Part shown: piece after piece, positions 1 through 58,888 of the stretch
How the letters are laid out: every line of letters starts with the position of its first letter
Numbering within the stretch: the first letter of the stretch is position 1
Assembly (NCBI GenBank): GCA_004431415.1
Contig: QPMI01000610.1
Coordinates: forward strand, 62,001-126,000
Length of the DNA: 64,000 bases
Direction: 5' to 3'
DNA from: Cyanophora paradoxa CCMP329
Lineage: Eukaryota > Plantae > Glaucophyta
The notes under the pieces: generated by a model
Told to the model about the DNA's origin: nothing
The model's input: the letters and a program-made list of their open reading frames with translations, nothing else
Database searches by the model: none
Made by a program: the position numbers and the translations under genes

Positions 1-1332
1 GTGCCGGCATGAGCATATGCGCAGTCATTATCAGCGAAAAGTTGTGAACAAATAAGGCGATGCACCCGATGAAGTACTTGGAGCGCGCCACTTCCTCGAG
101 GCACAGCCTTAGCACCTGCGGCCCGCACCGGTACGCCCGTCGCATGCGCATGCGCAGTCAGACTCGCCGCCCCCCGCGCCGGGCACAAACATGCACGAGC
201 TAAGGCAACTACAGTACGTCTACAGCTGCATGAACGTGTATATATATATATATGTGCACGCGCCTCGCCGCTCTCTGCCGACTCCCGTGTAATGCCCCAT
301 CTGCCGCATCGCGCGCTAGAATTAATTGACTGGCCCTAGGCCCGGCCACGCGCACAAGCGAAGTCGACTCGTGCGCGAGAAACGTATACGTACCGCAGAT
401 CTGCACATATATATCATGATCAGATATCGATATCGATGCATGTACGTATACAGCCTAGGTCTCTAAGTTTCTAGGTTTCTAAGTACGTATATATATAATA
501 TCGATATCGATTCGAAGTTAGCATCCCCGCCCGCGGCCCTCCGGTCCGCGGCCCGGCCCGTCGGCGCATATGCATATATATGCATGCGCACCGACGGGAA
601 CGAAGAAGAGACCACGGACGTCCATGGCGCGCCGCAGCCGCGGCACGGCGGATTCGAAGATCGCCCGCCGCTCCTCCTCCATGTCCTGCGCATGTGCATT
701 TGCGCACACGTGTGCACGATGCGGGATCGGCCGCGGCCGGATATCGATCGATATACATATATCCCGCGGCACGTGCACCCGCGGCCGGCCGCGGCCCCGG
801 ATCGAGCTCGCGATCGAGAGTCATGCATATGCATATGAGTTCATAACCTCGCGTATAGCGTACGTACACTAGTGGCCATGGCTATGAGTGCATGCGCAGC
901 TGCAGGCCTAGGCCTAGGCCTAGCTATATAGGCCTATAGCGGCCGGGGGTGGCGATATATACCGCGCCGGCCGCGCCGCGGGTATACGTAGAGCGCGCGC
1001 CCGGCCCGCGGCCGCGGCCGGGGGTAGCGATAGCTATAGCGCATATGCTTGAGCTTAAGATCTAGATCTAGATCTCTGAGTCTAGAGACGCGAACCCGGA
1101 AAGTCGACGAGAGGAAGACGCGAACGATGCGATCGATCGGACGCGATCGCGCTACGAGAGACGTTGCATGCACTGCTGGAGTTGAGATGCAATTGCCGCG
1201 GCCGTCAACGTCGGTCAGATGCAGGCCGAGGGCGGGGGCCGCGGGGATTTCGATGGGAGAGGTAGCTTCGAGCTCATGTACTCTCTCTACGGCTTCGGTG
1301 CATTCATGATCCCGCTTACGCTTTCCGCTCAT
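1..1332 (-). CDS. DUF4062-domain protein (TEP1/NWD1/NPHP3-like N-terminus), 5' part; continues beyond the window start
   Basis: Spliced exons 1332-1096, 685-592, 400-394, 300-264 and 115-66 read ...IVRVFLSSTFR|DMEEERRAIFESAVPRLRRAMDVRGLFFVPV|DLR|WGITRESAESGE|VLRLCLEEVARSKYFIG. This matches the DUF4062 motif RVFxSSTFxDMxxER...VDLRWG...CLxEV. All junctions are GT/GC-AG and in phase. Confidence 0.85.
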
Positions 1333-1416
1333 GATCATTGCATGCGCAAAGCCCCGATGAAATGTGTGAGGCTAGCTAAAGATTGTACCCCGGGGCGCCC
1401 AGACTCGCTTCTACCG

Positions 1417-3631: not shown

Positions 3632-4308
3632 GCGGGTCGGAGGCTCGTTCGAATTCCGAGGCTGCAGCGTAGACTCTGAGAACTCGAGAGTGAGTTCATT
3701 TCTGCAAAAGTGGGCGCGGCGTCTCCGAGTCTCGACGTGCCCTTGCGAGCCGGGCAACGGCGCCGCCCGGCCGGCATGCGCAGCGCACGTAAGAATGGAG
3801 GTCCCTATGATATGGCATGGCCTGTAGACGGGCGCCCCACTTTCCGAAGTTTCCGCGATCGATCTCAGATCATCGGATCTAGACCCCGAGGCTCTCTGAT
3901 ATCGATCATGATGTGATCGTTCAAAGTATCTTTACACCCAAATCTAGCACAAGTGAATCCAAACTCTGACAATAAGCTATATAGCTAGCTAAAATTGCTC
4001 ATGCTCAAATTTCGACCTCAGCCCCACCGCGGGGTGGGGCAGGGGCCTGATTTCGGAATCGATCGAATTGAAAGCAAGGCGTAAATTTAAGAGCAAAGAA
4101 GCTGCAGCAGCAAGGCTGCAAGCTACAGCGCTACCTGATGGCAATCGCTGCCAATACATTTGCAAGGCGCACGCATCGATATCGTAAGGCTAATTTTGAG
4201 AAGACGCAAAACATACAGATCATGCACGGCCCGCTCAGGGGCCATGGCCACATCTACATAATGTAATTAATTTTTTAAAGAAGAGCGGCGCCGCGCAGGC
4301 GGAGCCGC

Positions 4309-7300
4309 CTAGGACCCGGGGGGCATGGTGGCGGCGAAGCCGAGGGGGCTCAGGCTGCGCGCGTGCGGGCCGTTGGCGTGGTGGTAGAGGCTGTGCTGCT
4401 GCTGCTGCTTGTGGGTGAGCTTGGCGCGGTAGGGCGAGGCGGGCCCCGTGGGGTTGTAGCGCTGCGGCGAGGGCGACGAGTGGATGCCGAAGGCGGCGCC
4501 CATCGGCGGCTGCGAGAAGCGGCTCGGGTGCATGGCGATGGGCCCGCCGATGACGGGCGGGCCGAGCACGGAGGCGGCCTTGCGCTGGTCCAGCGCCATG
4601 CGCTCCGCCACCAGCTGGTCGATCCGGTCCTGGAGCATGGCGGCAACGGACTTGGCGTGCATCAGCTCCGCGTTCATCCGCTGGTCCTCCTCCTGCCCGG
4701 CCCCCGCCCCCGCCGCCTCGTGCAGGTTCCCCACCGTCTTCGCCCGCCGCGCCGCCGGCCCCGCCACCGGCGCGAGCTGCGCGGGGGCCGAGGGCGGCGG
4801 CTGCGGGAGGGCGTGCGTGCCGGCGGGCATCCCGTTCTCCGTGGTGCGCGGCGGCGGCCCGTGGCCGTGCTTCTCGTGCACGGGCGCCAGCGGGCCGCCC
4901 CCGATGCCCCGCATCACCTCCAGCGCCACCCTGCCGGCCCCCGAGCCGTCCGTCGGCGGGCGCCCCCGGAGGCGCGCGGGGCGGGGCGGGGGCTGCGCAC
5001 GCGTTGGCCTTCTCGGCGCTGGCGATGGCCGCCTGAGCCCGCTCCCGCTCCCGCGCGATGTCCTCCCTGCCGAGCCGCGCGGCGTCGGTCGGGGGAGGGG
5101 GCCGGAGACTAGTACTCGGGGATGCGCGGGGGCGGGGCCCGGGGCGCACGCGTGCTTGCGGGAGAGCTGCTCCCAGAGCTCGCGCTTCATCTCGTCGAGG
5201 AGGGCGGCCTGCGAGCCCTTCGCCTCGCGCAGCGCCGCCGTGTGCGCCGCCTTGACCTCGTTCAGCGCCGCCTGCTGCGCCGCCCGCGACTGCGCCAGGT
5301 CGTGCGTCACCCGCCGCGACTCGCTCGCCAGCGCCTGCGCGTGCTGCAGCTTGAGCTGCCCCCCGCCCCGCGCGTCAGGCGAAGAAAAGAAGACGGGGCG
5401 GGGACCGGACGCGGCGCACGTTGGTCATGGCGTCGTTGTGGGCGGCGGCGAGGGCCTCCATCTCTGCGGCGTGCGCGACGCGCGTCGCCGCGAGCTCGTC
5501 GCTCAGCCGCGCCGCCTCTGCCTGCGACGCCGCTAGCTGCTGCTTCAGGCTCACCACCAGCTCCCGCAGCGCTGCGCGCGGGAGAGCGGGAGAGTCAGGC
5601 CGCGCTCGCAGCGGGGCGGTGCGAGGGAGGGCCGGGGCGCGCCAGTCGCATCGGCGGTGCTCGCCGCGCCGCCGCCGCCGGCGCCGATCGCCTGCTCGAG
5701 CGCAGCGGTGCGCGCGGCGGCCGACTCGCGCAGCGCCACCGCGTGCGAGGCCCGCAGCTGCCGCAGGCGCCGTCAGCGGCACGTGGCGCGGGGCGGCGGG
5801 GCGGCGCGAGAGGTAGCGCAGCGCACCCCGTCGAGCTCGGCGGCGTGCTGCGCGCGGATCTGCTGCACGGTCGCCGCGTGCCGCGCCTCGGCCGCCTCGA
5901 CGGCGCTCGCCTGCGCGGCGCGGGCGGCGGCCGCCTCGTCCTGCGCCTGGCGCGCCTCGGCGAGGGCGGCGGCGAGCTGCTCCCGGAGGCTCGCGAGCTC
6001 CGCCCGGAGCGCCGCGTCGTCGGCCGCGCCGCCGGCGGTGGCGGCGACGACCGACGAGCTGCGCGTGCGCCGCGGCGAGGTCCGCGATGCCAGCGCCGCC
6101 GCCAGCTCCGTCTGCGTCGCCTGCAGCTGCGCCCGCAGCGCTGCGCCGCCCTCGATCAGAGCGGGCGGCCGGCGGCGGGCGAGGCGCGCGGCGCGGGGCG
6201 CACTCTCGACTTCGGTCGGCTCGGGCCCACGTGCGGACGGCGCCGAGGCTGCCGCCGGCGCTCCCAAACCCGCAGCGGGTGCCAGGAGGGCCGTTGCGGC
6301 GGGAGCGGCCGCCGGCACCGGCGCCGGAGCGGGCAGGGCAGCTGGCGCCGATTCCGCGGCGTCGCAAACGGTGTAGTGCCGGCTGACGAAATCGCTTTGG
6401 ATCCACAGCAGCTTCGTAAACGCCCGCACCAGCTTGTCCTTCCTCGCCTGGTCTACAGGAAGACACTGGAAGGTCGCGATGAGGGCGTCGTTGACGTAGC
6501 CGAAGAGCGCGTTCATGTGGACGAGGTCGATCTCCAGGCTCTTGTTGCCCTGCGCGGCGCGGTGAGGCCGCGGGTCTCTCGCGGGGCGACGCGGCTCCAC
6601 GTACATCCTTCTTCGTGTGGATCCGACCGACGTAGTCCACGTATTCCACGAGAGCGGCGTCGTACTCGGCAGTGACGAGCTTGACCAGGTACTTGGTCAG
6701 CTTCTCCTTGCTGCGCGGAATGTGAACACCCGGAACGCCTTGGTGGAGGCTACAGATCATCTCACCGGAACTTGATGACCTCGTGCGATACACCGAGACC
6801 CGATTCGCTTTGCGGAAGCGAGCCCGAGAAACCCTCTTGCTGAGGCATGAAGTATCTCTGCGAAAGGTTTCAGTATCCCTCGCGGAAGCACCACGAAGCA
6901 CGAGAAAGACTGGCCTTGGTTACGTCGAACGAGAAGAGTTTCGCATACACAGCATCCACGAGCGTCGGTACCAGCGGGCCGAGCACGGGTGCGATTCCCT
7001 TGATGGTCGCAATGTCGTCCGCGCTGAAGCCCATGAACCGCGCCAGGTACCCGAACCGGTACGCCGAGCTCGTGTGGACTTTCTTCATGTCGATGACCTC
7101 CACGCCCGCCTCTGCCGGGCCCGACGCCGCCGCAGCCGGCATCGGCGTCGTGATCGGTGCCTCGCCCGTGTCCACCGAGTCGCAGTTCGTGTAGTGCCGG
7201 CTCGTGAAGTCGCTCTGCACCCAGAGCAGCTTCGTGAACGCCCGCACCAGCTTGTCCTTCGTCGCCTGGTCGACGCCCCCCGACAGGCCCTGGAAGGTCG

Positions 7301-10300
7301 CGATGAGGGCGTCGTTGACGTAGCCAAAGAGCGCGTTCATGTGGACGAGGTCGATCTCCAGGTTCTTGTTCCCCTGCGACGCGTCAGCGCACGCGGCTCC
7401 CGCCGTCCCCCGCCGGGCCGCACCTCCTTCCGAGTGTGGAGCTTGCCCACCCGGTCCACGTACTCGACGAGCGACCCGTCGTACTCGGATGTCACCAGCT
7501 TCACCAGGTACTTCGCGAGCTTCTCCTTGCTGCAAACACCGTCAGCGCGGTGGCGGGCGTCCCGCGACGCGGATCCCGCTCACCGGAACTTGATGATGGC
7601 GTGCGACGTCGTCAGCGCCCCTTCGGTCCCGGGCAGCTCGCCGGTGTACCCGTCCTGCTGCGGCAGGAAGTACCGCTGCACAGCCCCCGTCAGCCGCGCC
7701 GCGCCGCGCCGCGCCGGGCGGGGCGGGGGCGGCGCGGCTCGCCTTGGTCACGTCGAACGAGAAGAGCTTCGCGTAGACCGCGTCGACGAGGCCCGGCACC
7801 AGCGGGCCCAGCACGGGCGCCGAGCCCTTGATCGCCGCGATGTCCCCGGCACCGAACTGAGCGGCCGTCAGGCACGGCTCAAGCCGTTTCTCCGACGTTC
7901 GGCCCACTCACCTCCATGAACTTGCCCAGGTACCCGAAGCGGTATGCCGCGTTCGTGTGCACGAGCTGCGGCGCGGCCGATCAGATCGGGCGACGGTTGG
8001 CGCATCGAGGGAACGGCCGAACCTTCATGTCGATCTTCTCGATGCCCGGCTCGGCGGGAGCGGCCGCCGGCGCTGGCGCGGGCAGGGCGGCAGGCGCCGA
8101 TTCCGCCGCGTCGCAGACGGTGTAGTGCCGGCTCGTGAAGTCGCTCTGAATCCACAGCAGCTTTGTGAACGCACGGATGAGCTTGTCCTTGCTCGCTTGG
8201 TCCACGTTCGTCAGGCCCTGGAAGGTCGCGATGAGGGCGTCGTTGACGTAGCCGAAGAGCGCGTTCATGTGGACGAGGTCGACCTCCAGGTCCTTGTTGC
8301 CCTGCGGCACCGCGCGTCGGATGCCATGCCGCGCAAGCCCGGGGCAACAGCGCGGGCGCGCGCACCGCCTTCTTGGTGTGGACCTTGCCGACGAAGTCGA
8401 CGTACTCGACGAGCGACCCGTCGTACTCGGATGTCACCAGCTTCACAAGGTACTTCGCGAGCTTCTCCTTGCTGCGAACACCGTCAGCGCGGCGACGGGC
8501 GTGGCGCGACGCGGATCCCGCTCACCGGAACTTGATGACCTCGTGCGTCAACGTGAAGCTCGCCTCGCTCTGCGGCAGTGAGCCCGAGTAGCCCTCCTGC
8601 TGCGGCATGAAGTATCTCTGCGATCGATGTCAATGCCAGCGCCATGGAACCCACGACACACGGTGGGAAATGCTGGCCTTGGTCACGTCGAACGCGAACA
8701 GCTTTGCATACACCGCGTCCACCAGCGTCGGCACCAACGGCCCCAGAACCGGAGCAGATGCCTTTATCACCGCAATGTCGTCCGCGCTCATCTGCTCTTG
8801 CCGTAAACACAACTGCGGGAAAAGAATGCGCGAGGCGACACGGACCCCCATGAACCGCGCCAGGTACCCGAACCGGTACGCCGAGCTCGTGTGGACTTTC
8901 TTCATGTCGATGACCTCCACGCCCGCCTCTGCCGGGCCCGACGCCGCCGCAGCCGGCATCGGCGTCGTGATCGGTGCCTCGCCCGTGTCCACCGAGTCGC
9001 AGTTCGTGTAGTGCCGGCTCGTGAAGTCGCTCTGCACCCAGAGCAGCTTCGTGAACGCCCGCACCAGCTTGTCCTTCGTCGCCTGGTCGACGCCCCCCGA
9101 CAGGCCCTGGAAGGTCGCGATGAGGCGTCGTTCACGTAGCCAAAGAGCGCGTTCATGTGGACGAGGTCGATCTCCAGGTTCTTGTTCCCCTGCGACGCGT
9201 CAGCGCACGCGGCTCCCGCCGTCCCCGCCGGGCCGCACCTCCTTCCGAGTGTGGAGCTTGCCCACCCGGTCCACGTACTCGACGAGCGACCCGTCGTACT
9301 CGGATGTCACCAGCTTCACCAGGTACTTCGCGAGCTTCTCCTTGCTGCAAACACCGTCAGCGCGGTGGCGGGCGTCCCGCGACGCGGATCCCGCTCACCG
9401 GAACTTGATGATGGCGTGCGACGTCGTCAGCGCCCCTTCGGTCCCGGGCAGCTCGCCGGTGTACCCGTCCTGCTGCGGCAGGAAGTACCGCTGCACAGCC
9501 CCCGTCAGCCGCGCCGCGCCGCGCCGCGCCGGGCGGGGCGGGGGCGGCGCGGCTCGCCTTGGTCACGTCGAACGAGAAGAGCTTCGCGTAGACCGCGTCG
9601 ACGAGGCCCGGCACCAGCGGGCCCAGCACGGGCGCCGAGCCCTTGATCGCCGCGATGTCCCCGGCACCGAACTGACTCAGTGAGCGGCCGTCAGGCACGG
9701 CTCAAGCCGTTTCTCCGACGTTCGGCCCACTCACCTCCATGAACTTGCCCAGGTACCCGAAGCGGTATGCCGCGTTCGTGTGCACGAGCTGCGGCGCGGC
9801 CGATCAGATCGGGCGACGGTTGGCGCATCGAGGGAACGGCCGAACCTTCATGTCGATCTTCTCGATGCCCGGCTCGGCGGGAGCGGCCGCCGGCGCTGGC
9901 GCGGGCAGGGCGGCAGGCGCCGATTCCGCCGTGTCGCAGACGGTGTAGTGCCGGCTCGTGAAGTCGCTCTGAATCCACAGCAGCTTTGTGAACGCACGGA
10001 TGAGCTTGTCCTTGCTCGCTTGGTCCACGTTCGTCAGGCCCTGGAAGGTCGCGATGAGGGCGTCGTTGACGTAGCCGAAGAGCGCGTTCATGTGGACGAG
10101 GTCGACCTCCAGGTCCTTGTTGCCCTGCGGCACCGCGCGTCGGATGCCATGCCGCGCAAGCCCGGGGCAACAGCGCAGGCGCGCGCACCGCCTTCTTGGT
10201 GTGGACCTTGCCGACGAAGTCGACGTACTCGACGAGCGACCCGTCGTACTCGGATGTCACCAGCTTCACAAGGTACTTCGCGAGCTTCTCCTTGCTGCGA

Positions 10301-13300: not shown

Positions 13301-14948
13301 CGCCGAGCCCTTGATCGCCGCGATGTCCCCGGCACCGAACTGAGCGGCCGTCAGGCACGGCTCAAGCCGTTTCTACGGCTCAAGCCGTTTCTCCGACGTT
13401 CGGCCCACTCACCTCCATGAACTTGCCCAGGTACCCGAAGCGGTATGCCGCGTTCGTGTGCACGAGCTGCGGCGCGGCCGATCAGATCGGGCGACGGTCG
13501 ACGCATAGAGGGAAACGCTGAACCTTCATGTCGATCTTCTCGATGCCCGGCTCGGCGGGAGCGGCCGGAGCTAGCACGGGCGCAGAAGCCGTCGCCGGAG
13601 CCAAGGCAATGCCGGGCGCCAGGGCTAGGGCGGATGCTGATGACGACGAGGCGAGCAGCGGCGCCGCGGGCGCGGGCGGTGGGGAGGCGAGGTTGAGGGC
13701 CGGTGCCGCAGCAGGCGTTGAGGGCGCCGCCATCGGCGACCCCGCCGACTGCGGGCTCCCCACGCCGGCGGCGCTATCGACGCGCCTCTTTTCCTTCGAG
13801 ATGGGGCGCGCGGCCACGAACGGCGGCGGCGGCTCCTCCCCGACGCTCTCCAGCTGCGCGGGGGCTTAGCTGTGGCCTCCGGTCCCAACCGGGCCCACGG
13901 GCGCCCGCACGCACCCACTTGTCCGCCTCCGCCAGCTCCGCCGGCGTGCTGCGGTCCGCGTCGATGTCGCGCTCCACGCGCGCGCTCAGCTTCGCCACCC
14001 GCGCCGCGATCGCCGCCTTGGCCTCCGCCGTCTGCGAGCCGGCGCCTTAGGCGGCACTCCGGGGCCGGCGGGGCGGGGCGGGGGCGGCGGGACGGGGGCG
14101 GCGGGGCGGACCTGCGCGGCGGGCTTGGCGGCGTACTCGGCGATCTTGGCGAGGCGGGCGTCGATGGCGGCGTCGCGGGCCTGCTTCCGGGCGATGCGGT
14201 CGCTGCCCTCGAGGACGCTGGCGAGGAGCCACTCGAGCCCGGCGCTCATCGAGCCGTTCCACTTGGTCTGGTCCGCCAGGCCGCACGCCTCGACGATGCG
14301 CACGACGGCGCCGGCGCCGGCCGCGAGCGCCTCGACCTCGGAGAGGGGCACGCAGCCGTCCAGGTCGCGCTTGGTCGCGAGCACCAGCATCGGCTTGCCC
14401 TTGAAGCGCGGGTTCGCGCCGACGCTCGCCATGACCGCCCGCGCCGCCTCCACCGACTCCTTCTTCGACGTGTCCACCGCCAGGATGCTCGCGTGCGACT
14501 TCACGAGGATCCCCAGCAGCTTCGGCGACTCGCTGTACGGCCCCCGCGCGTCGATCTTGAACTGCGCCCCGCGCGTGAGCCAGCCGCCCCCCGGGCGCCG
14601 CCGGCCGGCCCCGCGGGTCGGGCCCACCTTCAGGTACATGCCCGAGGACGCGAGCTTGGAGAGCCGGTCATTCTCTGCGGCGGATCGAGCGGCATGAGCG
14701 GCGGCCGGCGCGCGCGGACGCGGCGCCGCGGCGCTGATGGCGGGGCGCGGGTCCTCACCCTTGACAAGCTCCCTGCGGGTCACGGCGCTCCATCAGAGGC
14801 GGTCGGTGGGCAGGAGCGCAACCAACAGAGCTAACCCGAACTTGCGGAGCAGGCTGCGAACTCCGAAGCCCTTGTGAGAGGCAACGAAGATTTCGACCAG
14901 CTTGTTAGCTGTCGGCGGCACGTCGGCCGCCTTCTCCTTCTTGCTCAT
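4309..14948 (-). CDS. Arl13/Arf-like degenerate GTPase domain + 8 tandem protoglobin (sensor-type globin) domains + C-terminal coiled coil
   Basis: ATG at 14948: MSKKEK...EIFVASHKGFGVRSLLRKF...KIDARG...FKGKPMLVLATKRD...VEAC...GLEWLL. Then eight copies of YRFGYLxxFMxFxxxDIAxIK...VDAVYAKLF...YF...VGxxHT...HMNALFGY...AFTKLLWxQSD...RHY between about 13470 and 6375. Ala/Glu/Arg/Gln-rich coiled coil to a TAG at 4309. One apparent 1-nt frameshift at about 9124. Confidence 0.85.
7032..13565. repeat. Tandem array of an about 1.82-1.84 kb two-globin unit (about 3.6 copies, near-identical including introns)
   Basis: The anchor ccatgaaccgcgccaggtacccg recurs at about 7032, 8849, 10671 and 12511. Homologous ORFs start at 7916, 9739 and 11579. 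Confidence 0.95.
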
Positions 14949-15362
14949 GCTGCGAAGAGTCAGCGGTAGCGGTGTACGCTCGCCTCTGCAGGAGCCTCTC
15001 CGCCAGGACGATGATAAATGGGGATCACCTTTAGCTAGGAAGTGCGCCAGGCGGATCCAACGACGCAGTAGCGTCCGATACTATCTGCAGGCAGCCGCGC
15101 GCCTGGCCTTGCGGCTTTCGACGGGTCGCCCACAAGACTTCGCAAGCTGTAGAGGAAGCAACGTGCTGGTGCTCGATAAGCACAGGTATAGGTGCGCTTT
15201 ACTTGATGGAGCGCGGAAGAGCCATAAGGAAGCCGCTGCGGCTGTCTTCTCCGATCCTCGACTCTTTTAGCTTAGGACGCCTGAGGGTACTTGGTATTGA
15301 GACTTTAGGCTGTACCCCATCGAACCCCCTTCGTTCGCAGCTTCGGGGCCCGGGTCGCCGCC

Positions 15363-18300
15363 ATGTCGGCCTGGGACCTTTTCTTAGCCTGCAAAGGTCC
15401 GCGTCGTCTTCCCGAGAGCCCGCACCGCGCCTCTCTGATGGGTCGCCCTTCCGCACCGATGCTCGCAGACGGGTGCGCGCGCCGAGCGCCGAGCTTTTGG
15501 ACCTCTCCTTGGCCTCTACTAGTTCTCGCCTGGCTCGGCCCTCGGCCCCGCTGGCCGGCTGCTCGTCGCGCATATGCATGCGCCCTTTTGATTTGGTCGC
15601 GGCGCAGGGACGTGGCGGGCGTAGAGAAGTACCTCACTATGGGCATAAACGTGAACGTCGCTGACTGGGTGCGTGCTTGCCAGGAACGCCGCGTCGCATA
15701 GCTAAAATTCGAGGCCGGGCGCCGCGCCGGCGCCCGGCGCGTACGTACACATATATACGCCGGCGGCCGCGGCGCCGGCCGGCGCCGCCGGCCTGCAGCT
15801 GAACCTCCCGCGCGCGCCACACTCTGTTATTTGACACCTTGGGGCCCGCAGGACGAGCGGCGGGTCATCCACATGGCCGCCAACTACGTGCGCACGCAGC
15901 GCTCGGCCTCGGGCGCCCCCCGCGCGCGGCGGCAGCGCCCCTCTTATGCCTCAGCGCCTCTCTTAAGCTTCGGCGCTTCGCCGCAGGGCCACGAGGAGAT
16001 GCTGCGCATGCTGCTGGCGCGGGGTGCGGCCGGGGCCCCTCCTCCACTATAGCTAGGTACCCGGTCTGCGCGCACGGGAGCGCTCAGGGGGCGCCGCGCG
16101 CGTGCAGGGGCCGACAAGAACATCGCCGACAAGTGGGGAATCACCCCGCTCCACGTGCGCCCCGCCTGCTCTGCAGCAGACCTTCGATCCCGCCCCGCCC
16201 GCGCCGCCCCTCACGGCGCCGCAGGAGGCGTGCATGAACGACCACGCGGACATCGCGCTGGTCCTCATCGAGGCCGGGGCCGACCTCGGCGCCAAGAACA
16301 ACGAGAAGAAGGCGCGCGCGCGCGCGCCCCCTCCCCTCCGCTCCGCCGGCCCCGCGCCGGCCCTCACGCGTACGGGACGCGGGGCGCAGACGCCGATGGA
16401 GCTGGCGTCGCCGGCGCTGCGGCGGGAGCTCATCGAGCGCTCCCTGCGGCACGTCTCCTGGGAGCTCGTACGCCCCGCCCGCCCGCCCCATCCCCAACGG
16501 CGCCGGCGACCGCGCCCCCGCTGACGCGCCGGCGCGGCGGGCGCGCGCAGTTCCACGCGGCGAAGAACGGGAACCTGGAGACGGTGCGGCACCTCGTCGA
16601 GTCCGGCCGCGTCGACATCAACGTCCAGGTCCCTCCATTCGATGCCCCTCGGGATTCCGGCGGAGCACACGGCAGCTCGAGGCGCGGGGCTGACGGGGCG
16701 CGGGGGCGGGCGGGGCGGGGGCCAGGACTGGGACGCGCGGGCGCCGATCCACCTGGCGGCGGAGTACGGGCACGCCGAGATGCTCGACTGGATGCTCGCC
16801 AACGGCGGCGACAAGAACATCCAGGCCCCCGCCCCGCCCCGCCCCGCCCCGCCCCGCCCCGGGGCTTCCGTAGCTGAGGGCGTGTCGCGAGCAGGACCGG
16901 TGGGGGGTGACGCCGAGCCACGAGGCGGCGAAGCACGAGCACTTCGAGATCGCCGTCTCCCTCCTGCGCGCCCCGCCCGCCTCCCGCCCTCCTGCCGGCG
17001 CCCGGCGTTGACGCGTGAGGGCGCAGGGAGGCGGGGGCGGACATGAACGTGGTGGACGAGGCGGGGCGGCGGGCGCTGGAGCTCGCGAGCCCCGAGCTCC
17101 GCCGCCTGCTCGACGAGAAGCTCGACCTCTGGAACTCCGCCATGCGCGGCGACCTCGGCCCGCCCCGCCCCGCCCCGCCCCCACGCCCGGCCCGGCCTCC
17201 GCGCAGCGCCCTGAGGCGGCGGGCAGAGACGGTGCGGAACATCCTGGCGGGGAACGCGATCGGCGTCCACTCGGTCGACGCCGACGGCTCCACCGCCCTC
17301 TTCTCCGTCCGGCCCCCCACCCCCCGCCCGCCCCGCCCCCTCCCTCTTCCGCGCGCGACGCGTACGGCCCCGGCAGGCCTGCGCGGGGGGCCACATGCAC
17401 GTCCTCAAGTACCTCCTCATCATGGGCGCCGACCGCAACCACCAGAACAAGCGGTCCGCCTCCGCCCGCCCCCCGCCCCCCGCCGCCCGCCGCCCCCCGC
17501 GCGCCCTCTGACCGCGAGCCCGCGCCTCGCTGGGGCCCGGCGGGCAGGGGCGAGACGCCGCTCATGTACGCCCTCGTCCACAAGCGCGACACCGTCACCC
17601 GCGTGCGCCCCCTCCGCCTCCCCCCCCCCCCCCCCCCCCCCCCCGCCCCCTTCTTCCAAGCCCGAGACTACCCCCACCCCCTCACCCCCCCTCTCCCCCC
17701 CCCCCTCCGTCTCCCCTTCCACCCCCCAAATCTCCTCCTTAAGAACTCTCGGGCTGACCCGCCTCGTCCGCCAGTACCTGGTGGACAACGGGGCGGCGCT
17801 GGCGCTCAAGACGACCCGCGGCCACACCGCACTCTACTTCGGCGCGCACGGGGCCCTGGCCCTAGGCCTAGCCCTGGGCCTTCAGCCCCGGCCCCGCCCT
17901 CGTCTCACCGGCCCGCTCCGCCCCGCAGCGCTCAAGTCGCGGCGGCGGCGCATGGTCCGCCTCCTCATCCAGAAGGTGGCGATGGCCGGGCCCCGCTCCG
18001 CCCCGCCCGGCGCCCTCGGCCGAGCTCGAGGCGGGGGCAGGGGGCGGCCTTCTCGTTCGGGGAGCCGTACTGGTCCCTCGTCAAGGACGCCGTGAAGCGC
18101 TCCGAGGCCGAGTTCTTCGCCTGTCCGCCCCCGCCCCCGTCCGAGCCCCCACCCAGCGGTCTCCCGGCGCTGAGCGGGGCGGGCGGGGGGGCAGGCCTGG
18201 AGGAGAACGGGATCGGGCTGACGGCGGAGGTGCTGGTGGAGGTCATGCTCGCCGCCGGGCGCTACGGCTCCGAGCCCGTCCTCTCCATGTGCCTCAAGAA

Positions 18301-26063: not shown

Positions 26064-27173
26064 CGCTGGCAGGCTGCAGCCGCGTGCGCAAGCGATCGAT
26101 ATCACGCTCGCGACTTCATTCGCGATCGATTAGGGAAAGACACTAGTACTGGTCATGCGATCATGACTCAGTGAGACACGATGAACTAAGCTGATGAGCC
26201 CAGGCCTAGGTACCGGTGCGCTGCTGGCAGGCTGTGCACGTGCACGTGGCAGGCGTTCTCGTCGGCAGCGTCGCGGAACGCGAGCGGGGCCTGCGCACGC
26301 GCCGCGTCCGTCATGATCAGAAGCGTTGCGGACGGGGGCCGGGGGCTGCAGCTGGGGCCTCGCCTCGGAAAAGCAGGGCCGGGGGGCCCGGGGTGAGGGG
26401 GAGGGGGGCGCCGGCGGGCAGGGCGCGCGAGCTCGAGAGGGCGCAGCACCTTGGCCTCTTCGAATTCTGTCAAGATATCGATGGCCTTGAAGCGGAATTC
26501 GAAGTTGCAATTGCCCATAAATCGGCTGCGGGGGCCGCCGGGCCGGGGGGTCGGCTGCGGGGGCCGGGGGGTCGGCTGCGGGGGCCGGGTCACCCGGGTG
26601 GCCGGCCCGCGGCGGAATATCGATATCGATTCGAATTCGAATTCGAAATCGAAAAAATTCGGAGCGCACCGCGGCCGGGTACCGGGCTACTACCGGCCAG
26701 CCGTTTTTTTGGTTTCGAATTCGGAGCTCACCAGACTTTTTCCACGGGTCGGGGTACATGCAGGTTGCAGGGGCAGCCCGACGAGTCGACGTCAACGGGC
26801 GCCGCGGTACGCGCGTATATACGCGTGAGCGGCGTGACCCGCTGCGGACTGCAGCCTATGGCTAGGCCTGCAGGTCAGCTGTGCATGCGCGTAGGTTGCA
26901 GCCTACTTGCAGGCAACGTTAACTTAAGCTTGCAGCTGCAGCTGAGGCTGCTGCAGCTGAGCCTTGAGCTAATCACAAGCCTGAGCCTCGGCCCTCGGAG
27001 CGACGTCGACAAGAATGTATTTTGCAGGGCTGCGCACCAGCCCGTTTGGAAAGCGCGTTCGCAGTAACATAGGAGCGGAAGATACTGCAGCTGGCAGTGA
27101 CCCACCGACTCCACCATTGGCACGGCACCTTGGTCGCGAGATCATCGAATATAGCAAGCCACTCGAACCACCC

Positions 27174-29558
27174 ATGGCCACTGCGTCTGTGAAGACTATT
27201 CCCCCTCCAAAAGGATGGGTCTCTATGCCGCAAGGCACGCCCCTGCAAGTTCGTATTACTTACGGCGATTCGGTGCGCTGTTGGTGCAGGAAACGCATCT
27301 TAGAGCTCACTTTGAATTCAGAATGGAACTCGCTAACTTGTACGTATACCTGCGCATGCGCAGAGGTCTGCGAGCGTCGACATGTATACGTTATAGTACT
27401 CGTGCTTCGATATATATAAGTTGAGGCACCCCGACCCTTGCGCAGCTTTTTCACGCAGAAGTCGCTTCCTTTTCCCGTCTACTGCCCAGCGGGGACAAGG
27501 TGCGCGTGCTCGCTGTACGTATACATGTGCAGCTGGTTGCAATTGCTAACGATTAGACGGCGCGGCTGCGAGACAGATGGCTCGCCCAGATAACCGGCAC
27601 CTCGCCATGGCCAGGCCCAGACGATGAGCCTGCCGACAAGATACACTGTTGCGGATCGGCAGACGTTACAGGCAAGCCGCGGGGGACCCACGGGATCATC
27701 CCACCTGTAGTTGTCAAAGGTGTCCCGAATCCGCAGGTGCGGCATGCGCACTGCGGCAGCTGCAGCCTAGGCCTGATCATGAAGCTCCCGGCCGGGCGCC
27801 AACCGCAATTGTACTGCACTAACTTGCACTTGTATTCTGCGGCAGGACGCCCAGGAGGTCGAGCTGGCTTTCAACGAGTCTTGCCAAGAACGTGAGTCGA
27901 CGTCGACGTCGCTGCTAAATATTCCCCCCTGCAGCTGCATGTCATTCATGGCATCTGCGCAGCGCGCCTCGTCAATACGCTGTTCAAAGATCGTTCGGAT
28001 CGGCCGAGCCGTGCGTTCCTCGGCAGGGCGAAGCTCACCGTCTCTCCCGAAGACCACCGGATGCTCGTGCGGATGGCCGAAGAGTGCGCGTCGGCGCCAC
28101 GCGCTCGACTCGCGATTGCAAAATATTCGCGATCGCGAGTTTTGCAAAAACAAACTGATGCCCGAATTTCGCGCAGGCACCAGGAAGAAGTGGAAGAGTA
28201 AGTGATGCGAATTCAGTTGCAATTTCAGATGTCCGTGTAGATCTTGGCATGCGCAATCGTGGGCCGACGCCCGGGCACGCATGCACAGGCGTGCCGAGTA
28301 TGCTTCGATTTCTCAGCGTCAGTTGAACAAAATCAAGGCAATGTATCCATCGCGATTTCTGGTCACCGAGCGGAGCATTGCTACGCCTGCAGCCCCGACG
28401 TCGACGATCGCGGCACCAGCGACGGTCGCAACGGAGGCGCCGGCACCGGCGCTCGCGCCGGCACTCGCGGCCGGTGCAGCGTACGCGTCGGCCATGACTG
28501 CGACTCCAGGTCCAGGCGAGGTGCGCTTATATTTAATTATGCAGAGATAGGTTTTGAATTTCGCCTCATCGATATCAATATTAAAACTGTTTGCTAAACT
28601 CCCGCACTGCTCTCCCAGTCGCGGACTTTTTCTGGGGGATTGGACGACGCCAAACAGGAGGTTCTTACATACATCCGAGCGAACTTCGAGGTGCGCATGC
28701 ATCGATATCGATGTCTGGCCATTGGGATCTATCACGAGACTAACGGAAACTCCAATTGCAATCAGTCGTGGGAAAACCCCAACCGTGGAGGAGCTCTTTC
28801 GTTCGGGCTGTCGCGTATACCGGTTGAAGGTCGGATTCAGCAAGTGTACAGAAGCGATCTATGGCGTGATTTGACCCCTGAACACAAGTCGGCACTGGAG
28901 CCGCTTCTGGAACAGATGGTCATGGAGCCGCCGCCGGCTGCACCCACACCGAAGCTTAAGCCTGCAGCCCCGACGGCGCCGGCCGCGGCAGCAGCGACGG
29001 TCGAAAAGGAGGCTGTGCTCGTGAAACCGACGGTCTCTTTAGGGCGCAATCTACACTTCAAGGAGAACGTGCAGCCTGCCCCGTATGTACCCCTTTTGCC
29101 GACGGGTCGTGCGTGCCTTGGATATCGATGCTGATCATCATCCTGGGCGCAGACCGCCGACTCTCGAGCACTACTTCCTGGACAGGGTGCCCACGGACTC
29201 GTCGGAGTTCGGCGACGGACTTCGAACCGGCCGCATCTTCACGGTCGACGTCCTGGACGCGGGCACGAACCTCGTCGACTCCGACGTCGGCGGCTACGTC
29301 GCCTACTCGAGCGGCGGCGCCGACTGCGGCTTCCCCGCTGACGTCGACGACGACGACGCCTCCCCCGCCGCCGAGGCCCGCCCCGCCCCTCGCATCCGAG
29401 TGCCGCTCATCTAACGGGCGGCGGGCCGGGGACGACAGGGGGAGGAGGGGGTCCTGGGGGAGGCGCTGGGGGCGGAGGGCGAGGGCGAGGGCGCCGCCTT
29501 AAGCTTCGAATTCTCGGACCCGGCGGCCCTCGCCGACCGCCACGCACCGCTCCTCTAG
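27174..29558 (+). CDS. Hypothetical multi-exon protein (lower GC, possibly degenerate)
   Basis: Exon-like blocks flanked by GT/AG and branch motifs, e.g. MATASVKTIPPPKGW..., LHVIHGICAARLVNTLFK..., VYRSDLWRDLTPEHKSALEPLL..., PTLEHYFLDRVP.... No recognisable domain, and the exon phases are not fully resolved. Confidence 0.35.
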
Positions 29559-30462
29559 ATTTCGATCTGGACCCTTTCGACCTTGAAAAGTCATGTTCAT
29601 GATTGGCTATAGGGCCCCGCCGTACGCGTCGGACTAGTATTGGTGTTGAATCATTGAATTTCACGATCAGTCTGGTTTTAGATGTTGACTCTAGAAGCAT
29701 ATCTCTGGCCCAGTGGATCTAGATATGTGACAGTGAGGGAACTCAGGGAAGGTCGCGGGCCCTGAGGAGATCTAGACGCCGTGACGTCGATCGCGACAGC
29801 CTCACATGCGCATGCATATGATCATGATCATGATGCCTGCGCGGCACCGCATGCGCAGCCATTGCAATTGAATCATGGCATTGGCTGTTCGATGGACTTC
29901 GGGAGCTCGAGTGCAACATGCATGCGCAGTGCTAGAAGAATTTCAAACGTGAACCGTGAACCCAAATTGTTTGCAAAAATCGATTGCGATTTGAATTCAT
30001 CGGATCTCAGGATAGTATCACTCAAAATTAGTACACTGAGTCACGCAACTAGTAGGCTACCGAAAGCTAACTAGAAATGATGAAAGCGAGCTGCCTGAAG
30101 CTAGCGTGGAAACGGCCTGTCATGATCACTGTGGACATCGATTGTAAAGCACACTCCGATCAAGAGGAGGCCTCATTAATGTTGTAAAACGGCCTGCCAG
30201 GCTGTCTGTCACTGAGAACATCGGTTGGAAAACACTGGCGATCAAGAGGAAACGAGAGGGTTCGCGCAGAAACGTCCTGGCGAAGGCACTGCGGCGCCAC
30301 GGGATGCACCTGGAAGCACAGGCGCGCGCAAGGCGCGGGGCTGGCCTGCCTCTCTCGCAAGGCGCGGGAAGCTTGACGTCTAGATCTAGATCTCTCTGTG
30401 CAGAAAATGGATACAGTTTTCAAAGAAGGGGGACACTGTGCAGGCTGCTGAGCGGTGGCTGG

Positions 30463-50648: not shown

Positions 50649-51252
50649 GGGCGCCGCCTTTCTCTTTCTCGGAGCTCCTTGACGATCTTCTCTTGTAGTT
50701 AGTTATAGCCGTCTTTATTGATGCTGCAGACTACAGCCTAGCTATAGAAATATAGTCAGGCCAGGACTCGCTCCTTTACATGTGTCCCGCCGCGCCCAGT
50801 ACTATTCAAGAGGGCTCGGCGCATTCAGATGTGCATACCGTATTATTGAAATTACAAAGCTACGAACACTTATCGGCGACGAGCTTGCTCGCACGGTTCA
50901 TCCGTGCCACCCCTCCGCCACATTGGGACGAGCCGGGGATGTACATGTTGCCTAGACGGTTGGGGATTTGAGTCGGTGAAGCGCGTGCGCGACTCGCAGC
51001 CTAGCCTGCGGGATCGATCCCGCTGGCGCTTACTGAGGTACGGGCCCCGGGGGATGCCCCGACGCAAGTGAGCTGGGACTTCACGACCGTCGGACTGGCC
51101 TCCGTGCCAGGCTCCGTCGGCTCACCGCGCTGCCTGCAGTGCGGCGCGCCGAGGGCGCCGCGTTGCGTGTAGTTGTCACGACCTTTCTGCGTGCATGGCG
51201 GCGTCAGGTTGATCCCCTCGGCGGACGCGCGGCGCCAGCGCCGACCTGCAGT

Positions 51253-52055: not shown

Positions 52056-54794
<2,739 letters not shown>

Positions 54795-54820
54795 GGCCCC
54801 CGATCGACCCCGCGCCCCCA

Positions 54821-54972
54821 GCTAGCCCCGCAGCGTAGGACCTCCTTGGCCCTTCTGTATCCCTCCCCACCCCGCACGCACCAACCCCGCCTGCCCCCCT
54901 CGCTTCCCATCCTCGGGAGCGCGGAGCAGAATTTTTGTTTCAACAAGGATACCAATTTCAAATCGCGCCATC
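54821..54972 (+). repeat. IMPDH 3' flank, copy A of a diverged direct repeat
   Basis: gctagcc..cgcagcgtaggacc...ccttggcccttctg...cgcaccaaccccgcctg...ggagcaga.tttttgttt... also occurs at 58529-58740. Confidence 0.85.
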
Positions 54973-55306
54973 CGCGCCGCCGGGCCGGGCCGGGCCGGGG
55001 GCTCGAACGATGATTAACCGGACCGGGCCGGGGCCCGGGGGGCTCGGCACGATCCGTCGGTACCCCTTGATCTCGGTACCCCCTTTGACTGTTATCTCTG
55101 TACCCCGGCACACGAGCTGCAGCTGGCTACTAGCTGCGGATGCAGCACACTGTCTTCGCGCGTCAGGCGGCGCGTCAGGCACTTGGAAGTGATCTGGAGG
55201 ATGCTATGATGCCTGCTAGCTGTTCGGTGATCACTTCTCCGTAGCCCGCCGTCCTCCAGCTGCGCGAGCCGCGCACCTCCGCGCGAAGTGAGCGTCGACG
55301 CGGAAC

Positions 55307-58300
55307 ATGGCGTCCGCGGAGAGTCGAGGTACCACGTTTGACGAGAATGGTCGCCCGGCCGCGGAGTGCCCCGTCTGCTTTCGCCGCTTGCAGGAGCCGG
55401 TGCGCGCGCTCTACCCACGGACTAGGCCGCATAGACGTCCAGCTGACTGCTCCGGATCCTGCGCAGGCGGTCGTGATCTGCTCGAGCGGGCACGCTGTCT
55501 GCCGAAGATGCTCGGATGCTTTGACATACGCGGCGACGCTCAAGTGCCCGGTCGCGGGATGCGGAGAGAAGTGCGTGCGATCAATTACAAGATCTGCGCG
55601 CGGTCGTCATGGCTAGCTGGAGCGCCTGACCGAACGCGTCTCATCGCAGGTTACGAAGCTTGGCAGCTGCAGCTGACACGCATGACCAGCTGCAGGCCAG
55701 TTCCCTATCCCTCGAGCTCGCCTCCCAAGCCCCACCTGTGCAACATACCGCGAGTGCCTCGAGCTCCTCCGCCGCTCTGGTTCGGATATCGATATCGTTC
55801 CTTTTCCGCTGGTCTGCGCTCTACATCCTGATCGACCGCTCACAGAATAACGACCAGCTCTGTGCTCTAGGAGACCCACGGCTCTGGACGGAGGACGACG
55901 TCGCAACGTGGATTCGTCAGCTGGGAAAAGTGTCCAAGTGCGCTCTTTCGAGCTTCTAGAATATCGAGCTCTCCGTTCGCGCCCAGGCCACGGGATCTGG
56001 GCGAACGAACAAACATATGCTTATAATTAGTCACTCGGCAGGTTTGTGGACCATTTCGAATTCACGAACGGCCGCGCGCTGCTGGAACTCAGCGAAGCCG
56101 ACCTGAAGGAGATGGGCATCGAGCCCCACGGCGCGCGCCAGCGACTCATGGTCGACATCAACAGCCTGAAAAGAGCTCACGCCTCCGATCATTTCCGAGC
56201 TCACAGCGACAGCGCTAGCCCTGCGCATCCTCGAGTGACCCCGGGCCCACTTCTATTTGGGGATCTGGCCTCGAGCTCGAGCTCGGCCGCGGATGGCAAG
56301 CGCTGGGATGCTTTTGTTAGGTAACTCACCAAGTTTTAAGACATCTCTTAAACTCTTGAACTCATAAACATCCCGTACGCGTGTCAGTTATGCGCACAAG
56401 GACCAAGACAAAGTTCTTCGATATGTCACCCTGATGGAGCATGCAGGGATTTCGGTTTGGTGTGCTGTCTTTTGCGCCCGATCGGCTTTTTTTCCGCGCG
56501 CATCATGAAAGTGACCTATAGCTATCTGCCTTATTTCGCAGGATCGACCGGGAGCTTAGAGCTGGGAGGCCGTGGATGCCGGTAAGCTTCGAACTTCTGT
56601 TCCCCTATCATGACCATGAGATTATAATTACTTGCGTTGACTTTGCTAACGATCATGATTCTGATCAGGAAATCGCTCAAGCAATGGTGAACAGCTGGGC
56701 CTTCGTCGTGTTTCTTTCTCCGGCCTACTTCGATTCTCGGAACTGCGACGACGAGTTCCAGGTGCCTGCTTCGAGCTCGAGCCCGCGACCGCAGCCGTCC
56801 TGAGCTAAGAACGCTGCCGTCCTGCTCTTGCGGTCGCTTACAGTCGCTCCCGATCGAACTCGCAGTACGCGCACCACGTGCTGCGGATGCCGAAGTACCC
56901 CGTGTGGCTCAAGCCCCCGGCCTCGTGCACAAAATACCAGCAGCTACGCGACTACCAGTGCGCGCGTCTCTTTTGAAATCATAGCCAGGCGATCGCGATC
57001 ACTTAACATGTAGACTGACTCGGCTTGGTCTTTGGTTTGCAGCATGATGCTCACGAAGGAGGGCTGGACCGTCCAGAAGGATGATCGCGATGCCTCCGTG
57101 GAGGAAGCGGCCGCGTTTCTAATACGCGGACTTGTCGAGAACCTGCGCCTGAGCCAAGCAGCTGCAGCGTCAAGCCAGGCACAGATGCATGGTGCCTTCG
57201 TGTTGACGTGCTCTTTGAACCGCGGCTGCTTCGTTTTGATCTTGAACAGACTCAAGCGCTAGCGCTAGCGCCGCGACAGTGGCACAAGAACTGCTGGTGA
57301 AGTCGACACATGCACAGGGCCCAGTTGCAAGCTCCGAAGTAGCGACACAGGCGCCGGCAGTAGGAGGATCCGGACTGACACAAGCGCCGGCGGTAGGATC
57401 ACCAACACAGGCGCCGGCGCCACATGCATGTGGCAGTGACGGTGGAGACTCGGCAAGCGCTGCAGACGTCGATATCGTGCAGCTCGTTTTCCGAGCACAG
57501 GCGGCCCGTGCCACCTTGGACTGCCGAAGCGACGAGAAGATGCTCGAGGTCCTGTCTCGAGCGAAGGAAGCGCTGGGTTGCGCCGTCTTGACGCCGGTAT
57601 GCGCTGTTAACTTGGAGATGTGGACCCTTGGTCTATTGGAAATTGATTTCTCTTTTCCGTTGCAGCAAAACATCCGTCTAGTGAGGCGTGGCGAAAGGAG
57701 CTATCCCCACATTTGCTACGAAATAGTCAGACATCAAGCAAGCCAAACGGTCGCTCAAGCCGGGCTTCAGACTGGCTGCGAGATTTTCGTGTCGGTTCAA
57801 ATTGAATCAAAGGATCAACCATCGCAAAGTTCGACTCTTCCTCATCATACTCTCTCACACAGCTTCCCTCATTTTAACGGCGCCGCGTCCAGGCGCGGAA
57901 CCCGAACCTGCCTCCATCCCCGCATCAGCTCCAACCTTGCAGTCGGAAACTCTAGAGTGCTCGAGCAGCTTGGCAGTGGTTCGACTGGAACCTGTCGAGG
58001 AGTTTGTGCCTGTCGACGGCGAAGACCCGGATGTCGCGTTGTCTCGGCTCGCCAAGGCGCGAAGGTGGCAGCGGTGCCCCCAGTGCAGGATGTACATCAT
58101 CAACGATGGCGGCTGCAACCACATGCGCTGCACCGTGCGTGTTGTCACTGCAATCGCGACAGCCATCTGGATCTGACGTGCCCCATCCGATTCTGTAGTG
58201 CGGAACGGAGTTCTGTTACACGTGCGGGGTTCGTGTCCTCGTTTGTCTCCGGGCTTGCACCCTCCGGATCCCCGCAGCTGCCGCGTGGTCTCTGATCGCC

Positions 58301-58458
58301 CTCTCGCCGTTGGCCGTGTGCAGGAGGGTTTCTCATCAAGCCACGACGGCTGCTGGGAAGGGAACACGGCTCAATGCCGGCATTGGAGCCATCACTTCTC
58401 TGCAGCGCACCCGTTGTTCACAGAGGCCGTTTTAATGCGCATGCAGGACCTCGCTTAA
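55307..58458 (+). CDS. RING - SAM - TIR - ubiquitin-like - RING2 (RBR Rcat) multidomain protein
   Basis: RING CPVC...CSSGHAVCRRC...CPVAGC. SAM WTEDDVATWIRQLG...NGRALLELSEADLKEMGI..HGARQRL. TIR DAFV|SYAHKD...GISVW|ID.ELRAG..W..|EIAQAM...FVVFLSPAYFDSRNCDDEF. Ubl-like ...QNIRLV...TVAQAGLQTGCEIFV. Rcat WQRCPQC...DGGCNHMRCT|CGTEFCYTCG. TAA at 58458. Confidence 0.85.
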
Positions 58459-58528
58459 GATTCGAGGTCTTCGAGCGAGCTCGAGATTACGCTATTCTGA
58501 GCTGAGCTATTCTACATATGCATAGCTA

Positions 58529-58740
58529 GCTAGCCTCGCAGCGTAGGACCAGCCTACCTCCTTGGTCCTTCTGCTTCCCTCCACCGTGGCACACGTGCAC
58601 CCCTTATATTACGCACCAACCCCCGCCTGGCCCGTGGCCTCCTAGGGCCTCGCTTCTCCATGCCTCGGAAGCGAGGAGCAGAGTTTTTGTTTTAAAATGT
58701 ACAAGAATATCAATTTCGAAATTCATTTCGCGCACCATCC
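58529..58740 (+). repeat. Copy B of the IMPDH 3'-flank direct repeat, expanded by short palindromic insertions
   Basis: Collinear with 54821-54972 but about 60 nt longer. Confidence 0.85.
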
Positions 58741-58888
58741 TCCGGGCTGGGCGGGGGGAAACTCGAGGATAAAAAAGTTGGGGCGCGGAGCACGAAGCCC
58801 TACCCTAGAATTCAATATAAATAACAATCACGCAAGAGTGGCACAAAGCGAAGCAGAGGGGAGGGGGGGCGCGGGGGCGGGGCCGGCC

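Follow-up and report, generated by a model that had tools for sequence, protein, structure and literature searches.

The palindrome-rich introns and their host gene

A gene of the DUF4062 family lies on the reverse strand at positions 1-1372 of a 64-kb stretch of Cyanophora paradoxa nuclear DNA (contig QPMI01000610.1), here called the window, from which all window counts below are taken. Its first two introns fall within an interval, 400-1095, that a preliminary description had singled out as packed with short palindromes. Palindrome counts were tested against 500 dinucleotide-preserving shuffles. The interval holds 108 perfect palindromes of at least 6 bp (shuffle mean 29.1), 43 of at least 8 bp (8.9) and 19 of at least 12 bp (0.9); palindromes cover 65% of its bases, compared with 23% in the shuffles, and none of the 500 shuffles matched any of these values, so the density is well above a dinucleotide-matched background, as had been claimed. 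Five further sites had been said to share the texture. An excess of palindromes of at least 6 bp was found at four of these, namely 3850-4000 (10 versus 3.1, 0/500 shuffles), 26090-27000 (77 versus 21, 0/500), 29500-30130 (42 versus 11.7, 0/500) and 58470-58540 (8 versus 3.4, 3/500), but there was no clear excess at 50730-50760 (2 versus 1.2, 166/500). Tandem Repeats Finder reported no repeat in 400-1095, and mirror repeats showed little or no excess.

The exon-intron structure was examined with contigs from four sequencing runs, two of which (X15 and X17) are RNA by an automated guess and two (X1 and X9) DNA-type. The X15 contig joins position 592 to 301, with the letters of a 7-nt microexon between, and 263 to 114, supporting introns 2-4. 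At 1095 the contigs of both X15 and X17 come to a break, and the exon lengths add up to those of the contigs (465 and 464); since the gene's own contig has no listed joint there, support for intron 1 consists of this break and the length sum. The interval 400-1095 had been presented as introns of the DUF4062 gene, which holds for introns 1 and 2, but it also takes in the 94-nt exon 2 and the edge of the microexon. At 410 and 191 nt the two introns are, as described, several-fold longer than is typical: the nine RNA-supported introns of the neighbouring PARG gene measure 56-103 nt, and the mean intron length reported for C. paradoxa is 86 bp (PMC6704402). DNA-type contigs of X1 and X9, runs that may derive from the source strain, span 1-1543 with no differences, and the palindrome texture in that segment is therefore not an assembly error.

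Single exons of the gene alone gave no Pfam match to DUF4062, and the assignment to this family (PF13271) comes through two close paralogs. The spliced model is 92% identical over 75 amino acids to P0121, which has the Pfam DUF4062 domain with an E value of 1.5e-13, and 82% identical to P0122, which also passes the cut-off. Since P0122 has a DUF4062-NACHT-TPR (NPHP3-like) architecture, the gene at 1-1372 likely belongs to an expanded STAND-type family. The microexon at 394-400 sits inside the DUF4062 domain, and a paralog contig has an 8-letter spacer at the same joint. The intron at 116-263 on the reverse strand is of the GC-AG type, as the contig joint supports, and by eye several further introns in the window seem to start with GC.

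A triplet alternating with its reverse complement

In introns 1 and 2 together, inverted repeats with arms of at least 4 nt are in excess at a loop of 0 (41 versus 7.3 expected), other loop sizes giving 3-8 versus 3-5. The excess falls at arm lengths of 3 and 6, palindrome centres lie 3 bp apart (37 versus 1.3), and direct periodicity is seen at a lag of 6 (44 versus 1.5). From these four properties it follows that a triplet alternates with its reverse complement. With u for the triplet and u' for its reverse complement, the characteristic word is the 9-mer u-u'-u. Counts were then made in a main set of 9-10 regions, comprising 9,747 nt hand-picked for low GC and mostly noncoding. With dinucleotide repeats excluded, 164 u-u'-u 9-mers were found versus 2.6 expected under an order-1 Markov model. 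The same form occurs with 4-bp units 0 times versus 0.1 and with 5-bp units twice versus 0.1; there is possibly a weaker class with 2-bp units, of period 4 (90 versus 64.5, standard deviation (s.d.) 7.6). The 404 alternating runs in this set comprise 273 of two units, 105 of three, 12 of four, 11 of five and three of six, while an order-4 Markov model predicts 283, 11.4 and 0.7 for two, three and four units, respectively.

The word is largely indifferent to its letters. In a set of 10,708 nt, 132 runs used 28 of the 30 triplet classes, with three classes favoured 1.7- to 2.9-fold; all four central dinucleotides are similarly enriched, and 63 of the 64 palindromic hexamers lie above the order-2 expectation, in keeping with the earlier statement that the texture is not one satellite unit. 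A microsatellite or satellite with one or a few expanded units was considered and rejected on the breadth of triplet classes, the lack of any Tandem Repeats Finder entry and a mismatch with simulation. The cyanobacterial HIP1 is an iterated palindrome, one over-represented word in noncoding DNA rich in short palindromes. A HIP1-like single over-represented word does not describe a texture in which nearly every palindromic hexamer is enriched. Words with one mismatch number 268 versus 102, an excess about equal to that of perfect words, and their mismatches are spread over all nine positions as steady decay predicts. Runs of a triplet alternating with its reverse complement, whatever the triplet, are thus the source of the palindrome texture. 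The preliminary description had proposed a general mutational process acting on unconstrained DNA. A sequence-independent mutational process does fit, since nearly all palindromic hexamers are enriched and the texture cannot be traced to a single satellite unit. However, the palindromes are of one particular build, and noncoding DNA is not uniformly rich in them.

The density of runs is 36.6 per kb in intron 1, 31.4 in intron 2 and 26.3 in 26070-27020. Other low-GC blocks have 8-15 per kb; the introns of RAPTOR, PARG and IMPDH (the last placed by eye), which are short and GC-rich, have 2-3, the RAPTOR coding sequence 1.4 and a globin array 0.3. The density is highest near a divergent promoter and between genes. 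Within the block at 26070-30420, 25 runs fall in 26070-27020, 26 in 27020-29150 and 14 in 29490-30420. This unevenness may reflect targeting (to open chromatin), selection that disfavours longer introns, or more rapid loss of the words where introns are GC-rich. As a check blind to the choice of regions, every six-frame open reading frame (ORF) of at least 120 codons was masked, which left 3,636 nt of the window with 41 runs versus 1.7 expected (24-fold). After the same masking of 80 metagenomic RAPTOR loci, which represent eukaryotes with intron-poor RAPTOR genes or transcripts rather than a survey of eukaryotes, 50 of the 80 kept at least 500 nt, and 55 runs were counted versus 39.9 in 161,413 nt (1.4-fold). 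The richest 696-nt stretch among these loci has 4 runs, compared with 21 in C. paradoxa.

The form of the length distribution bears on how the word arises. Alternating segments of 6, 7, 8, 9, 10, 11 and 12 nt number 101, 74, 45, 70, 29, 10 and 8, with a peak at 9 nt. A forward simulation in which u changes to u-u'-u at 0.15 times the substitution rate gave 95, 70, 49, 78, 36, 15 and 6, while two rival simulations, one of single 3-nt fold-backs and one of hexamer-palindrome duplication, gave no 9-nt peak. The rate of 0.15 is crude, as it presumes neutral decay and averages uneven regions. Runs of 15-20 nt number 13 versus about 3 in the simulation at that rate, a surplus suggestive of hot spots or a degree of slippage. 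At 5 of 169 sites an older, out-of-phase word reappears once six bases are taken out of the present one, versus 0.8-1.0 in local controls; at least five such nested words appeared in 105 of 200 simulations of insertion and in 1 of 200 simulations of overwriting. The event is thus, with high probability, a net insertion of 6 bp, ongoing or recent, occurring at about one tenth to one fifth of the substitution rate where tolerated. Twenty exact events can be undone in intron 1 (120 nt, 29% of its length), shortening it from 410 to 290 nt, and seven in intron 2 (42 nt), shortening it from 191 to 149 nt.

Comparison of repeated sequences gave two further cases. A spacer element occurs in two paralogous copies that are about 67% identical, at 54820-55006 and 58528-58766, each following a different gene; the second copy exceeds the first by about 50 nt, and among its additional segments are some that repeat neighbouring sequence in inverted orientation. 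A one-mismatch word in the longer copy stands at a clean 6-nt gap in the alignment, where the direction of change, read from a pair of paralogs without an outgroup, would be insertion. An exact 9-mer at 58592 lies in a part absent from the paralogous spacer and is therefore not polarisable (rank 22/187). Among the repeat units of the globin array, the indels of six pairwise alignments include no +6 u-u'-u event, just an 8-bp insertion of inverted-triplication form; as the copy that carries it also has two 1-nt deletions, this +8 event may be an assembly error. In a check for a diverged strain, X19 matched with no listed differences, X23 gave spurious pieces and X24 short diverged coding pieces, and no noncoding indel was polarised. 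Coordinates are collected in the table.

Table. Positions of the host-gene parts, individual runs and events, and run-bearing regions in the window
Feature	Position	Strand	Remarks
Intron 1, DUF4062-family gene	686..1095	-	GT-AG, 410 nt; 15 u-u'-u-type runs
Intron 2, DUF4062-family gene	401..591	-	GT-AG, 191 nt; 6 u-u'-u-type runs
Exon 2, DUF4062-family gene	592..685	-	94 nt; inside 400-1095
First transcribed exon, DUF4062-family gene	1096..1372	-	Limit is the reach of the RNA-type contigs
Microexon	394..400	-	7 nt; letters between the joint 301-592 in an RNA-type contig; edge falls in 400-1095
Six-unit alternating run	904..921		18 nt
Six-unit alternating run	1058..1075		18 nt
Nested event	804..818		Undoing the 9-mer at 808 (intron 1) gives back an older, out-of-phase 9-mer
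One-mismatch u-u'-u word at a clean 6-nt gap	58695..58703	+	Paralogous spacer has a single u at 54943-54945
8-bp inverted-triplication insertion	9669..9686	-	Built of a 5-bp unit with 1-nt loops; carried by one globin repeat unit and lacking in 4 sister units
Transcribed region between convergent genes	3640..4235		4 runs (6.7 per kb); nested event at 3898
Lower-GC stretch between divergent genes	14900..15860		7 runs; nested event at 15771; layout by eye
Lower-GC block of spacers and a probable, unannotated gene	26070..30420		Nested events at 27516 and 29788
RING-SAM-TIR-IBR gene region and spacer	55000..58800		30 runs (7.9 per kb)

Possible origins of the word

The origin that we favour, with about an even chance of being correct, is that the 6-bp gain from u to u-u'-u is a scar of repair, formed after a cut-and-paste transposon that duplicates 3 bp of target DNA has been excised and its flanks hairpinned. 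Insertion of the transposon would duplicate u; at excision the flanks would each be closed as a hairpin precisely where the junction lies; both hairpins would then be opened a few bases off the tip by a host nuclease, and the overhangs, sharing part or all of u', would join there. By our own reasoning, u-u'-u would result whenever the two opened arms total at least 3 nt. The staggered cut would set the 3-bp spacing of the turns and the covalent hairpin would explain the zero loop. Five-unit runs would represent repeat hits and four-unit runs hits on chance hexamer palindromes, while nested hits would yield the overlapping texture and the longer introns. MULE, hAT, Transib and RAG are reported to form hairpins on flanking DNA, which host enzymes are thought to open (PMC5499845), and Ac/Ds scars to show P-nucleotides and microhomology (PMC5873905). 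Like hairpin-type excision footprints, the C. paradoxa words have palindromic, P-like bases between two copies of the target triplet, and a net insertion relative to the empty site is seen in the nested words and the 6-nt paralog gap.

A number of observations weigh against a transposon. A termini scan of the window found no CACTA, CACTG, CACAG or CACGG termini with a 3-bp duplication, no terminal-inverted-repeat element was present among the 25 longest of 2422 inverted pairs, and no transposase turned up among the window ORFs scanned. Plain u-u duplications are not in excess (157 versus 169). A single form dominates, whereas known scars are mixed: Ds in Candida is reported to leave 28 footprint types (PMC5873905) and the En/Spm-like Tpn12 of morning glory footprints of 3-5 bp (10.64898/2026.08.24.746626). 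Here, forms other than u-u'-u lie within about 3.5 s.d. of a single-rule simulation except where counts are very small. Because such a mixture is lacking and no element was found in the window, the words were not classed as hairpin-type excision footprints. The palindromes of Ac/Ds centre on a 1-nt loop, but the main class here has a loop of 0; the 3-bp form with a loop of 1 occurs 69 times versus 51 (s.d. 7), and this hAT-type feature is found only in the +8 event. That event, which has a 5-bp unit and is the only well-polarised one, itself lies outside the main class. After correction for 10 positions no preference for particular target sites is left (lowest p 0.012). Finally, introns 1 and 2 contain an intact run roughly every 28-30 bp, which demands heavy, long-lasting activity, and little or no repeat expansion is reported for the C. 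paradoxa genome (PMC6704402).

Some of these difficulties would disappear if the host made the same +6 event without a transposon, an explanation that we hold to be possible but doubtful. A polymerase might copy three bases, turn to the opposite strand for three and return, a switch of the type 'point 4 before point 1'; judging from the pattern, u-u'-u can indeed be written as a reverse-strand insert with return before the leaving point. Alternatively, a nuclease might make a 3-nt staggered break whose filled ends are sealed as hairpins and rejoined. A host process would account for the single precise product, the lack of plain duplications and the weak site preference, it would allow a high rate without repeat expansion, and the +8 event would fit the same scheme, its switch points being different. 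Apes are reported to show such there-and-back events, but their lengths vary, with a median of 12 nt (PMC7954356), and the variable insert with hairpin potential or microhomology that marks four-point template switches is replaced here by one fixed at 3. In-phase extension at the turns is seen in 54 of 210 flanks versus 55.0 expected, and flanks are complementary in 28 of 105 cases versus 28.9. A polymerase switch guided by microhomology or a flanking inverted repeat therefore fits poorly. Host enzymes are not known to cut with a 3-nt stagger.

Growth of chance palindromic hexamers, whether by microsatellite-like expansion or by repeated 3-nt mirror additions, is very unlikely to be the main source. 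Hexamer duplication predicts a peak at 12 nt and fold-back a large excess at 6 nt, neither of which was found, and self-complementary period-6 repeats number 65 versus 2.8 while other period-6 repeats reach merely 53 versus 30. Slippage may nevertheless extend existing runs, as runs of five and six units are somewhat above the uniform-rate simulation, and the weak period-4 class also speaks for it. Equally improbable is that selection keeps the words, as protein-binding or methylation sites or as DNA or RNA structure near promoters. The density peaks near a divergent promoter and between genes, the three favoured triplet classes, and the folding of intron 1, more stable than in shuffles (z -4.07, 0/100), would suit such a role. 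The stable folding is, however, produced by the motif itself, nearly all triplet classes occur, the four central dinucleotides are enriched alike, decayed copies are in excess about as much as perfect ones, and newer words interrupt older ones. That the words are assembly or library artefacts, such as fold-back chimeras, has a vanishingly small probability. There are a few probable small assembly errors elsewhere in the window, including one at position 2076, but the two matching DNA-type runs refute an artefact in 1-1543, and an RNA-type contig matches 3578-4929 with no differences.

Systems with which the words can be compared share some of their properties. The footprints of hAT Ac/Ds, MULE Muta1 and Transib and the P-nucleotides of RAG likewise have a short palindromic insertion at the joint, and in footprints of hairpin-forming DDE enzymes copies of the target flank the insertion and joining passes through microhomology (PMC5873905, PMC5499845). 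As described there, such footprints are mixed, whereas C. paradoxa has one product (3-bp unit, loop 0, +6 bp) at 30-37 per kb, and excision of Muta1 is mostly precise, unlike the C. paradoxa words. En/Spm (CACTA) elements make a 3-bp target duplication equal in length to the C. paradoxa unit (10.1101/342816, 10.64898/2026.08.24.746626); Tpn12 footprints are not of 6 bp, no available text gives u-u'-u as a product, and CACTA-type ends were not found in the window. Harbinger-type footprints, in the available text of PMC6850418, lack the u-u'-u form. Short-range template switching in apes and humans also gives nearby insertions templated by the opposite strand, some returning before the leaving point (PMC7954356, PMC3638132); these are variable in length and rare, while the C. 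paradoxa insertions have a fixed length and would occur at about 0.15 of substitutions. Non-repetitive, non-slippage insertions are given as about 2.5% of indels (PMC3638132). Excision of DNA transposons in grasses leaves scars that are likewise concentrated near genes and promoters, but these are deletions, fillers and nearby substitutions and not one palindromic word (PMC5023962). Green-algal organelle DNA is similarly rich in short noncoding palindromes (PMC2670323, PMC7043297); its repeats are of one or a few sequences, while C. paradoxa uses nearly every triplet, and in nuclear DNA.

The idea that Chlamydomonas has 9-bp scars found no support when the accessible text of PMC8383909 was searched by term, and the accessible supplement of PMC12344493 held no match to the terms searched. 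The string 'palindrom' is absent from the main text of PMC6704402, whose supplements may list transposon families. No description of the u-u'-u pattern was found in the full-text literature searched, which lies outside most subscription papers.

Neighbouring features and implications

Several other features of the window were recorded. A RAPTOR exon matches a EukProt protein of C. paradoxa with 100% identity. Two arrays of protoglobin-like units of about 900 bp each, apparently long multi-globin genes (Pfam Protoglobin, E about 1e-5), lie at 6300-13580 on the reverse strand (8 units) and 42900-46440 on the forward strand (4 units); each has one unit that lacks the first intron, and the units look homogenised by gene conversion. 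An IMPDH intron contains, at 53976-54462, a 193-bp unit repeated 2.5 times with 99% identity. The forward-strand gene at 55245-58455 has matches to RING, SAM, TIR and IBR, several of them below the Pfam cut-off, in a layout resembling immune-signalling proteins. A low-GC region without annotation, 27020-29400, probably represents a gene; a 57-bp repeat occurs inside it, and Pfam gave no match that reached the cut-off. At position 2076 all four runs compared have an extra G, and the PARG gene in the assembly therefore likely has a false frameshift.

Somewhat short of an even chance, in our judgement, is the broader proposition that a dedicated mutator operates in Cyanophora, in the form of a long-lived family of transposons or of a domesticated nuclease that forms hairpins and cuts with a 3-bp stagger. 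It would place an unvarying +6-bp inverted triplication at nearly every kind of triplet and at no less than one tenth of the substitution rate. If this is true, the long introns and spacers are in large part products of the mutator, whose hits in exons would keep the reading frame, two codons being added without a frameshift because the scars are +6. At least 120 of the 410 bases of intron 1 are explained in this way, which therefore provides a countable mechanism for intron growth. The u-u'-u scar would then be a major and apparently undescribed source of mutation in the C. paradoxa genome; were it genome-wide, one exact type of mutation would rank among the main forces acting on noncoding DNA in an important lineage of the plant supergroup. 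Such a mutator would also have left a nested, datable record of past DNA breaks across a eukaryotic genome, and scars that are recognisable and nested would allow the places and frequency of DNA cutting to be traced even if the element responsible has been lost. The u-u'-u signature amounts to a one-line k-mer test that is usable on any genome.
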